IMG/VR virus record: IMGVR_UViG_2585427621_000010
DNA length: 37,493 nucleotides
Direction: 5' to 3' (one strand)
Origin: a virus
Lineage: Duplodnaviria > Heunggongvirae > Uroviricota > Caudoviricetes
Shown here: one piece after another, positions 21,001 to 24,000 of the stretch
Position numbering within the stretch: position 1 is the first letter of the stretch
Layout of the letters: the number at the start of each line of letters is the position of its first letter
Made by a program: the position numbers

Positions 21001-24000
21001 CACCTTATTTTATTATTTTTTGAGAGAGCTATTACTGAACAAAAAACGCTGACTATATACTCAAAACCAAACAACTATTCTGCCAATCAGGTATAATGGC
21101 AACACAAGGAATTACCGTGTTTTTGCCTTCTCTGCCCATACAATACGGACATATACTTCATACTCTATTGTAATATTTCCATCCATGCGAACAACTTCAT
21201 TTATCTGTAAATAATATTCAAAATATTTATCACAGAAATCGTTTTTGGCCATGAACTGAGCACACTATAAAGTCCGGAACTGACTCTTTGTTAAATTACC
21301 TTAACGTTACCAGTAACACCTTCATAACAAAACATCACGGTATACACTGGGTACGGATATATTCCTGTGCTCCTTCCAGTTGCTTCTGCATTGCCATCAG
21401 CCGTTCTCTGAGGATGAAATAATCCCGTTCAGCGGCTTCTGCCAGTCGGGGACCGGTTGCATTATCCACGCCGGAGGTGATGGGGGCTTTACGCAAGGAG
21501 CCTGGACAGTTGGCGTTGATGCGCAGGCGCTTACGACCAGCGGCAACATCAGCACGCAGAGTTTCATTTTCAGCTCTCGCATCGGCTAATTCCCTCGAGT
21601 ATCTGGCATCAAGTGCAGCGACATCACGCTGGCGTACCTGCATATCAGTAATTGTCACGTTCGCCAGCTTCAGCTCACTGGCTTTTTTATCGCGTTGCGC
21701 TTTGTAGGTAATGGCGTTATCGCGGTAATGATTCAGCCCCAGACTAAGCACACCACAGGCTACCAGCAGGACAATAATCACCACACACAGAACACGGTTC
21801 ATATCCCCCTCACCCCACCAGCCATGACAAAGTTAAGACGCGCCAGGCAGTGGAAAAGCAAATAGCAACCAGCATTAGTGAAAATGAAATGCCGACGATT
21901 ACACAGAGGATCTTCGCCAGCGTTATGAGCTTGTCTGACATGCTTAATCCTCTTCACGATTTCAACGCAATGACCAGTTTTGCCAGCCCATACAGCATCG
22001 GAGACACAGCAATACCGACCGCCACCCACTTAATAGCAAAAGCCAGCGCTCTGCTGACGTCATCAGTTACAGGCGCTTTCAGTTCAAGGCCGTTTTTCAT
22101 AGTCAATCTCAACAGAATTCGTTTATACTTTCCCATGTTCTCCCTTGCCTTACTCAAGGTCAGAAACACAAAACCCCGTTTGCGGCCAACAAACGGGGTT
22201 TTACTTTTATTCACTTAGTTTTTGCCAGTTCGCAGGATTTCGTGTTATCCGCCAGTGTGAGCAAACCGCATTTTTCAGCAAAATATTCTGCTTATCTGTC
22301 AATTCCCCAGCACGCCAGCGCGCTCTCCTGGTCACGCCGTGAAACCTGACCGTAGCAGTTGTTTGAGCGAATACGGCAGTCTCTGCCACCGTCCTTAATC
22401 CACCAGCGAATCGCCTCACACGCTCCCCTGCGATCACCTGCATTAATTCGTCTGTAAAACGTCGACGGGAAACACTTACCGGGACCAATGTTGTACGGAC
22501 AGAATGACGCGATCCCCGCTTTCTGGGGTTCGGTCAGCGGTACTTTAATATTGCGCTCCACCCACTCCAGCGCCTTATCACGTTCAATGGCGTTAACCTG
22601 GTCGCATTTTTCCTTCGACAACTTCATGCCCGGAACGACAGGTTTACCATCCACCAGGATGGCACCGCGGCAGATGGTCCAGATACCCGCACCATCACGG
22701 TATGCCGTGGTGTGGTTACCTTCTTTTTCGTCAAGAAACTGGTCGAGGATTTCAGGCGCAGACGCCCCTGCACCAATCAGCGCCAGAACGGCAGCCGACA
22801 GGCCGTATCTGATTTTTGCGTTCATGGATATTTATCAGGGTTTATCGATTTCAAATCCCTGGATATGTTAAGTCTTCAGGCCAGCGGTGGAGTCTTCAGA
22901 GAACCCGTAATTATTCCCGGTAGTTTTCCTCTGTAGGTTATCAACACATCCTGCGCCTCTAAAATTACGGGGCGCTTTTCCGGCAACGGACCATCCCCTT
23001 CACATAACCCGGCAGCAACATCCATGAAAAACTGCTTCGCCTGCTTTTTCGCCTCAGCTTCGTAAAACTCCAGCGTGGCACCTTCAGTACGGTCAAGACT
23101 AATCGCCACATCTGGCAACAACAGTGACGGATACCCACCAATTTCCGGTGCCACAGTAACAGTAATCTTATCCGGGTAATTATTTATCCCTTTAACACCC
23201 AGTTCGTATTTTTTCTTCATCGCTTTACTCCCCCCGCGCCGCCTTACGACGGTCCTCTCTGATTTTGAAATACAGGTTAGTCAGATACGTCAGCAGGCCA
23301 AACAGCAGACTCCCCAGCACACCGATTGCCACCCACTGGGACGGAGAGACTTTGTCCAGCAGCTGCAGTAACCAGTATCCCGTCCCCACCGCTGACGTGG
23401 TGTATGACACACCTGTTGTGATTTTTTCCATCTGATGTATGTCTCCGTCACCGCCGACAGAAAATGAAAGTAAAGGAAAACAAAAAGCCGCCAGTGTCGC
23501 CCACTGACGGCCAACGCCGGGAGCCGTGATTATGGCATTCAGGCTCTGCTAAAAATGCCAGATAACATTCCGGCTCCCCCCCTGATTCAGGTTATAAATG
23601 ACACAATATCTTGACAACACCCATCACTGTCTGTCAGAAAATGTACTGCCAGATATAAGTATCATGTGAAACCCAACTATCCTTCTTAGCCAGTATGAAC
23701 CGCCCCGGAAATCCTGGAGACTAAACTCCCTGAGAAAGAGGTAAACAGGATGACTAAAAATACTCGTTTTTCCCCCGAAGTCCGTCAGCGGGCGATTCGT
23801 ATGGTTCTGGAAAGTCAGGATGAATATGACTCACAGTGGGCGGCAATTTGTTCCATTGCCCCAAAGATTGGCTGTACGCCGGAGACTCTGCGTGTCTGGG
23901 TTCGCCAGCATGAGCGGGATACCGGGGGCGGTGATGGTGGGCTCACCAGCGCTGAACGTCAGCGTCTGAAAGAGCTGGAACGTGAAAATCGTGAACTGCG

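Follow-up and report, generated by a model that had tools for sequence, protein, structure and literature searches.

The lysis cassette of IMG/VR virus record IMGVR_UViG_2585427621_000010, a stretch of 37,493 nucleotides from a tailed phage (Caudoviricetes; hereafter the window), carries three additional open reading frames (ORFs), of 114, 60 and 43 amino acids (aa), among its holin (S), endolysin (R) and spanin (Rz and Rz1) genes. Our comparisons suggest that the two smaller ORFs belong, together with a hairpin and a leader upstream of them, to one mobile unit that is placed just before Rz or after the endolysin gene; its recurrence across unrelated cassettes, and sometimes in tail-fibre regions, is the main new point of this analysis. 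We give a probability of roughly 45% to the reading that the three ORFs are accessory genes of the late operon and that the small proteins act in lysis at the membrane, an argument from guilt by association. The extra genes are conserved and common in Shiga-toxin (Stx) phages; their families are known and their function is uncharacterised.

Gene order in the window is that of prophage Sp14 of Escherichia coli O157:H7 Sakai (NC_002695.2), a window position being approximately the Sakai position minus 2,669,917. The cassette region is 100% identical to annotated genes of many O157 genomes, and the interval between R and Rz is identical in many O157:H7 chromosomes. Read on the minus strand from 23431 to 21335, the order is S, the 114-aa gene, R, the hairpin, the 60-aa gene, the 43-aa gene and Rz, in which Rz1 is embedded:

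23225–23431, minus strand: S, class II (phage 21-type) holin/pinholin, 68 aa, ECs_2743 (PF04971, E = 8.8e-33)
22876–23220, minus strand: DUF1327/YdfR-family gene, 114 aa, ECs_2742 (PF07041, E = 1.1e-44; phrog_406)
22292–22825, minus strand: R, GH24 phage lysozyme, 177 aa, ECs_2741 (PF00959, E = 1.5e-24)
22170–22202, minus strand: hairpin with a perfect stem of 13–14 bp and a 7-nt loop, followed by the U-tract UUUUGUGUUU down to ~22158
22137–22169, minus strand: common leader and Shine-Dalgarno sequence (..CUGACCUUGAGUAAGGCAAGGGAGAAC-AUG), from cross-locus sequence comparison
21954–22136, minus strand: 60-aa gene, ECs_2740, WP_001303555.1 (phrog_1115/4493/3246, function not described)
21810–21941, minus strand: 43-aa gene, ECs_5740, WP_001280929.1 (phrog_4906, single transmembrane domain (TMD))
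21335–21802, minus strand: Rz, i-spanin, 155 aa, ECs_2738 (PF03245, E = 2e-46)
21397–21582, minus strand: Rz1, o-spanin lipoprotein, 61 aa, within Rz, ECs_2739 (PF06085, E = 4e-19)

The initial annotation of this sequence had described two unassigned genes embedded in the cassette, a 114-aa ORF between the pinholin and the signal-anchor-release (SAR) endolysin, as well as a 60-aa ORF with a C-terminal hydrophobic helix between the endolysin and Rz. Both lie where it had put them, and the AlphaFold2 model of the 60-aa protein places a helix at residues 23–59; a third gene, the single-transmembrane 43-aa ORF at 21810–21941, had been missed. The two small ORFs fall into PHROG families with no function attached. 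The label 'unassigned' does not fit the 114-aa gene, which can be placed in DUF1327/YdfR at the family level. The perfect hairpin that it had reported at 22181–22211 is real and lies about 10 nt away from there, at 22170–22202. We also agree with its description of the canonical phage 21 cassette as free of such genes: in the curated phage 21 genome (OL657228), S, R and Rz have overlapping stop and start codons with nothing between them.

In the window, the stop codon of S lies 4 nt from the start of the 114-aa gene, a 50-nt gap separates the latter from R, and 12 nt separate the 60-aa and 43-aa genes. S has a single start here, and reading the sequence upstream of it revealed no dual-start motif. 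The N-terminus of R is weakly hydrophobic and of the SAR type, with an apparent free energy of membrane insertion (ΔGapp) of +2.7 to +4.7.

We compared the R–Rz interval across ~160 IMG/VR loci (two overlapping sets, in which some loci are cut off) and several phage records; ~130 of the loci were informative. The interval holds a recombining set of mini single-TMD genes of three families:

Mini-gene family 1: the 60-aa type and shorter '..AFAIRIVAIAVLVWAIRWW' relatives
Mini-gene family 2: the 43-aa type
Mini-gene family 3: the H-19B type, '..DFSKLIREIR..TM..RWW' (phrog_6632)

At least one mini-TM ORF stands directly before Rz in almost all of the ~130 informative IMG/VR relatives of this Rz. 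In the Sakai prophages Sp6, Sp9, Sp10 and Sp12, most of the R–Rz gap is taken up by an antirepressor gene, and a 48-aa relative of the 43-aa gene still remains adjacent to Rz; in the other cassettes with an antirepressor gene, too, the small ORF keeps its place beside Rz. Related phages carry the DUF1327 gene and the various mini-ORF types in independent combinations. The same hairpin, leader (..CTGTTTCTG..AAGGCAAGGGAGAAC..) and 60-aa-type gene are found behind different gene sets:

Salmonella: GH24 lysozyme gene behind an HP1-type holin gene
Salmonella: GH19 endolysin gene behind a lambda-S-type holin gene
Salmonella: antirepressor gene (Ant), in the order holin, lysozyme, Ant
L185 (Logan DRR159936 contig): GH108 endolysin gene behind two unrelated holin genes, with a 43-aa-type gene following too
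E. coli: S21 holin and GH24 lysozyme genes

In total, the full-length 60-aa type adjoins Rz or the endolysin gene in five different cassette types. These comparisons suggest that the hairpin, the leader and the mini membrane ORF or ORFs move as one unit, and the hairpin marks its left edge, since the L185 GH108 locus has no similarity upstream of it. At 1789–1986 of L185, the unit is followed by a gene for a ~60-aa lipoprotein (LVGC lipobox, phrog_7528) in the place of Rz, and no recognisable spanin gene was found near that cassette. Our chief reason for proposing that the small genes act in the membrane steps of lysis is that they keep their place beside Rz in cassettes whose holins and endolysins are unrelated. 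On this basis of gene position across unrelated lysis cassettes, the suggestion in the initial annotation that the genes might be lysis modulators is plausible.

Judged by their sequence comparisons, both small ORFs are genuine coding genes under purifying selection and not chance ORFs. Between the 60-aa gene and its Salmonella copies, dN/dS is 0.13–0.22 at dS of 0.8–1.0; for the 43-aa gene it is 0.05–0.4, with 11 synonymous and 2 non-synonymous differences from the copy in PhiR12_3. Each gene has a Shine-Dalgarno sequence, and both are annotated in RefSeq. The initial annotation had held that a lack of conservation would undo its proposal; we found at least 80% of the 496-bp R–Rz gap in 989 of 5,426 complete E. 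coli genomes, and dN/dS far below 1. Database relatives of the 60-aa protein number 118, from Escherichia and Salmonella, every one of them annotated as hypothetical, while the 100 relatives of the 43-aa protein are all from E. coli. When species-representative genomes were scanned with an alignment of the 60-aa family, no relative emerged, in line with a narrow range of that family in Escherichia and Salmonella. Phage records with a gene of the 43-aa family, directly before Rz, number 276; nearly all are of Stx-converting phages, and most carry no annotation for it. Annotation of the H-19B-type mini ORF is missing in the same way from H-19B itself and from many Stx2c and Stx1a phage records.

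Selection on the amino-acid sequence also bears on the view that the small ORFs are mere translated spacers that couple ribosomes to Rz, or annotation artefacts. The last codons of the 43-aa gene do form the G-rich ribosome-binding sequence of Rz, whose ATG lies 7 nt past the stop codon, and other mini ORFs end in ..RWW and a stop codon over the same signal. Set against this, the families are conserved across genera and at sites without Rz, and phage 21 and the K-12 prophage Qin join Rz directly to R with no spacer ORF, which together with the purifying selection makes the spacer view very improbable.

With respect to the extent of the 60-aa gene, a GTG-extended form of 86 aa (to 22214) was rejected because it would run through the hairpin; those 60-aa homologues whose DNA was read have a common M/V-x-KYKR start behind a conserved Shine-Dalgarno sequence, which also speaks against the longer form. 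The '48-aa' homologues were set aside as apparent gene-caller truncations, the upstream frame being intact in the loci inspected. Between E. coli and Salmonella, codons 1–16 of the 60-aa gene (22089–22136) hardly differ at synonymous sites, although the remainder of the gene has many synonymous changes. This invariance could reflect a mosaic boundary or a constraint at the nucleotide level, such as an antisense promoter or a structure for translation initiation; Met13 could also serve as a second start.

The hairpin lies ~33 nt upstream of the 60-aa start and resembles an intrinsic terminator on both strands, with T-runs on each. Among nine distinct variants, pairing was retained in 99.2% of cells for the sense strand (with G.U wobbles and one double change) and in 93.1% for the antisense strand (with C.A mismatches), and in Salmonella and other more distant cassettes the stem is rebuilt with a different sequence. 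These comparisons favour selection on the structure in the late mRNA, but only modestly, because independent changes are few. The leader that follows is conserved before different mini-ORF types (in the window, PhiR12_3, H-19B, SPN3UB, L185 and the Salmonella loci), and is common to the 60-aa type and the H-19B type.

Opposite the first codons of the 60-aa gene lies a candidate signal of another kind:

22100–22129, plus strand: hypothetical antisense promoter-like site, TAGTCA-18-TATACT, within codons 3–13 of the 60-aa gene

If active, this hypothetical site would give a ~75-nt RNA complementary to the leader and the Shine-Dalgarno sequence and ending at the hairpin. The hairpin, leader and 60-aa gene might then be an antisense-RNA-gated toxic-peptide module akin to type I toxin–antitoxin systems, in which the antisense RNA over the ribosome-binding site would silence leaky translation in the lysogen and set a threshold for the lytic phase. 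We rate this as quite unlikely. Divergent homologues retain a promoter-like site at the corresponding position (as TAGTCA-18-TATACT, TAGTCA-18-TATAAT, TTGTCA-18-TACACT, TGGACA-18-TATACT and TTGGCC-16-TATACT), and when the genes were recoded synonymously as a control, such a site arose in 4–40% of recodings per lineage, a naive joint probability of ~6e-4 over four lineages that is overstated because the lineages are not independent. The near absence of synonymous change in codons 1–16 is in keeping with such a module, as are the U-tract that the hairpin also presents on the antisense strand and the small size and hydrophobicity of both peptides (ΔGapp of −3.5 for the 43-aa protein, the TMD of the 60-aa protein being marginal). 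Yet variation in the hairpin preserves sense pairing better than antisense pairing, the regional count of promoter-like sites is no higher than in shuffled sequences, and no small RNA (sRNA) peak from Hfq cross-linking and analysis of cDNA (CRAC) is listed at this site in Sakai Sp14. Rfam gave nothing in 21700–23600 at the gathering threshold, and at an E-value threshold its best hits were noise (E of at least 0.48). The likeness to symE/symR and hok/sok lies in small hydrophobic peptides, a possible antisense RNA over the ribosome-binding site and a nearby terminator hairpin, while the absence of a toxin promoter on the sense strand, as far as a consensus scan can tell, and of an Rfam antitoxin RNA match above noise sets the locus apart.

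The 60-aa protein has a net charge of +7. A short cationic amphipathic helix (residues 3–14, hydrophobic moment 0.56) is followed by a loop and, in the AlphaFold2 model, by the 37-residue C-terminal helix 23–59, which is weakly hydrophobic; the best hydrophobic window has a ΔGapp of ~+3.5 kcal/mol, near that of the SAR domain of R and unlike that of true anchors. In the model, this layout looks like that of a tail-anchored small inner-membrane protein. The 43-aa protein, by comparison, has one strongly hydrophobic TMD (ΔGapp −3.5), close to the anchor of Rz (−4). Neither protein matched any Pfam or NCBIfam family or any PHROG annotated for lysis, holin and antiholin families included, and neither matched a defence family in PADLOC-DB, where DUF1327 reached only E = 0.022 to a candidate model. 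By these sequence searches, no functional family described so far includes the small genes.

A simple consensus scan, which non-canonical promoters could escape, found no sigma-70-like promoter on the minus strand in 21200–23800. Nor does a terminator separate the 60-aa and 43-aa genes from each other or from Rz; the hairpin lies upstream of them instead. Antitermination of late transcription by Q is established for lambdoid phages. Because the coding strand has no promoter-like site and the hairpin stands just 33 nt from the 60-aa start, the three genes are most likely expressed by Q-antiterminated late transcription; the close packing of the genes, with the Rz ribosome-binding sequence inside the end of the 43-aa gene, agrees with this.

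A second terminator-like hairpin lies at 23486–23512 (minus strand), ~55 nt upstream of the S start and between S and the insertion sequence IS629. It has an 11-bp stem followed by TTTTTGTTTTC, its exact sequence is present in 9 of 168 fetched loci, and it fits a layout in which the late genes are parted by terminators passable only to Q-modified polymerase.

In our proposal, the three extra ORFs serve as accessory genes in the Q-dependent late (lysis) operon of a lambdoid prophage of the Sp14 type. The DUF1327/YdfR gene would have been slotted between the holin and endolysin genes, and the hairpin, leader, 60-aa gene and 43-aa gene would sit as a single mobile unit just before Rz. All three would be transcribed solely during lytic growth, by Q-modified, terminator-resistant RNA polymerase; the hairpin would block stray read-through that is not antiterminated in the lysogen, and may additionally stabilise the upstream S–R message. 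The 60-aa protein would have a tail anchor: its cationic helix would lie in the cytoplasm, and its hydrophobic helix would be a marginal one resembling a SAR domain. The 43-aa protein would be a true single-pass peptide. Both would enter the inner membrane late, alongside the holin, the SAR endolysin and Rz, and might there tune the membrane steps of lysis, whether pinholin triggering or membrane depolarisation, release of the SAR endolysin or spanin function, while being dispensable for the core S–R–Rz/Rz1 pathway.

The 114-aa protein, as judged from its sequence, is a clear member of the DUF1327/YdfR family. It matches Pfam DUF1327 (PF07041) with 151 bits against a cut-off of 25, over profile positions 1–92 of 93, and carries the RefSeq name 'YdfR family protein'. 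Hydropathy predicts a cytoplasmic protein with no TM segment. The conserved core of the family spans ~72 residues, and free-standing versions of 72–76 aa occur; the AlphaFold2 model (pLDDT 61) shows this N-terminal domain as three strands and a helix at moderate confidence, and the C-terminal 42 residues, which are conserved within the O157 variant, at low confidence. Foldseek returned nothing below E = 0.26 for the model against the PDB, and a sequence-profile search of the PDB nothing below E = 0.5. The family is narrow: a profile search (E ≤ 0.001) of 1.84 billion representatives found 89 clusters, and all ten of those sampled were DUF1327. Its genes are nonetheless present in 3,006 of the 5,426 complete E. 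coli genomes, in up to 8 copies each. Among cassette relatives, presence or absence of the gene is independent of what lies between R and Rz.

The closest counterpart with experimental data is YdfR of K-12 Qin, which likewise sits between a holin gene (essQ) and an endolysin gene (rrrQ), in the order essQ-ydfR-rrrQ-rzpQ; the gene junctions of Qin overlap, whereas the window has the 50-nt gap ahead of R. K-12 YdfR interacted with the catalytic N-terminal half of RNase E, as seen by two-hybrid assay and co-purification, and also co-purified with RNA (Göpel et al. 2026, PMC13232886). The two proteins have in common the N-terminal ~72-aa domain, with which YdfR reportedly binds RNase E, while the C-terminal 42 residues of the 114-aa protein (..KRPVILEAQDVLITYRGKLPGIITGSLK..) are unrelated to the K-12 C-terminus. 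Binding of RNase E and RNA by this different variant is the sole experimental lead for a DUF1327 role, and would extend to the 114-aa protein only by analogy.

Besides the reach of the promoter scan, several points weigh against the proposal that these genes are accessory lysis genes. Overproduction of YdfR changed few K-12 transcripts (PMC13232886), and a literature search by locus tag, family name and position found no functional study beyond the report on YdfR and RNase E. The parts that we could consult of a survey of Stx-phage lysis cassettes (PMC8136144) make no mention of these ORFs. The mini ORFs are absent from phage 21 and from K-12 Qin, and lambda is not known to carry them. Relatives of the 60-aa gene follow tail-fibre or tail-spike genes at the ends of Salmonella prophages, and relatives of the H-19B type lie among the baseplate or tail genes of Salmonella phage SEN34 and of a Pseudomonas phage, and therefore the mini proteins need no lysis-cassette context. 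At one such prophage end, in Salmonella GCA_042228205.1 (locus L188, 2356–2668), the 60-aa family is represented by two paralogues in tandem, of 47 aa and 55 aa, with the gene for a SASA-domain tail spike before them and a DUF1353 gene after them.

Tail-fibre, SASA tail-spike and baseplate neighbourhoods and prophage ends are typical sites for cargo, and the small membrane proteins, possibly with DUF1327, might be cargo that benefits the lysogen, for instance by superinfection exclusion or envelope modification, lodged at a permissive site with no lysis role. Independent, module-like assortment agrees with this, as does the antirepressor gene housed in the same gap in Sp6, Sp9, Sp10 and Sp12, and small inner-membrane exclusion factors are a known class, with HK97 gp15 as an example. 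We nevertheless consider cargo of this kind unlikely. The lack of a promoter-like site on the coding strand, combined with a terminator directly upstream, argues against expression in a repressed prophage; PADLOC gave no defence-family match; and the full-length 60-aa type keeps its place beside Rz or the endolysin gene in five cassette types.

The initial annotation had also offered 'morons' as a label, which fits only loosely. A classic lambdoid moron, such as bor or HK97 gp15, is flanked by a promoter of its own on the upstream side and by a terminator on the downstream side. The genes studied here resemble morons in being optional and independently assorting at late-operon junctions, with relatives in tail regions, and their presence or absence varies among close relatives. 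The other two of these three features, an own promoter and a downstream terminator, are lacking: there is no promoter-like site, and the hairpin lies upstream with none before Rz. A tail-region copy in Salmonella (locus L096) does have a downstream terminator.

Turning to known accessory lysis genes, the small genes are by position closest to lysA of phage P2, a non-essential membrane-protein gene between the endolysin gene K and the spanin genes lysB and lysC, with a reported effect on lysis timing. The 60-aa and 43-aa genes resemble it in their position and in the role proposed for them here. LysA differs in being larger and having several TMDs, and no sequence tie to it was detected, in that the small ORFs matched no lysis-annotated family in Pfam or PHROG.

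A second comparison is with Mu gp25, the 'releasin' (DUF2730), a small accessory protein that is tethered to the membrane and whose gene lies near that of a SAR endolysin, which shows that lysis cassettes can carry extra membrane factors for SAR-endolysin release (PMC9239132). Releasin has an N-terminal TMD (N-out/C-in) and an anionic cytoplasmic domain (PMC9239132), whereas the 60-aa protein, with its cationic N-terminus and C-terminal hydrophobic helix, would have the opposite topology and charge; no DUF2730 match was found for the small ORFs in Pfam.

Optional small genes in lambdoid late operons are already familiar to specialists and come as no surprise; what the present analysis chiefly adds is an improved annotation and a hypothesis open to testing. 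If a function could be assigned to these accessory genes, that would close a gap in the holin–endolysin–spanin pathway, which is otherwise regarded as well understood. Release of Stx depends on phage-mediated lysis, so that a protein that shifts the timing or efficiency of lysis could alter both toxin output and phage yield. In a bolder form of our proposal, the unit would be a lysis-control module in its own right that has so far escaped notice. It would be strictly gated by antitermination, and perhaps also by a cis-antisense RNA, and its tiny membrane proteins would make up a new functional class working at the end of lysis, for instance on spanin activation, release of the SAR endolysin or additional depolarisation of the membrane. 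We regard it as doubtful; were it true, the 43-aa gene, largely unannotated in most Stx phages, could influence the timing of toxin and phage release.

Other features of the surrounding prophage were noted. A known prophage sRNA at the R–Rz hairpin was considered and rejected, as none of the EcOnc sRNAs of Tree et al. 2014, when mapped on Sakai, lies there. AgvB and AsxR map upstream of S, and EcOnc10/11/12 (now HnrS) map just downstream of Rz in Sp9, Sp10 and Sp12, at the place where the window has pchC, a PerC-family regulator gene just downstream of Rz/Rz1 (20556–20870, minus strand); the HnrS sequence was not found in the window. On the other side of the cassette, a copy of IS629 (IS3 family, ~23697–25006, plus strand) lies between an upstream nanS-p-type esterase gene and S. 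Its orientation is opposite to that of the late operon, it puts 1.3 kb between the late promoter region and the lysis genes, and Rfam matched its ALIL frameshift pseudoknot at 24031–24147. Downstream of the Q gene region, an STnc100 sRNA match (101 bits) and three tRNA genes occupy 27029–27201 and 27975–28221 (both minus strand); STnc100 has been tied to prophage PasD sRNAs in a 2026 preprint. Finally, a strong match to the sok antitoxin RNA (Rfam, 115 bits, E = 1e-25) at 31137–31311 (minus strand) indicates a hok/sok-type type I toxin–antitoxin locus in the early region of the prophage.

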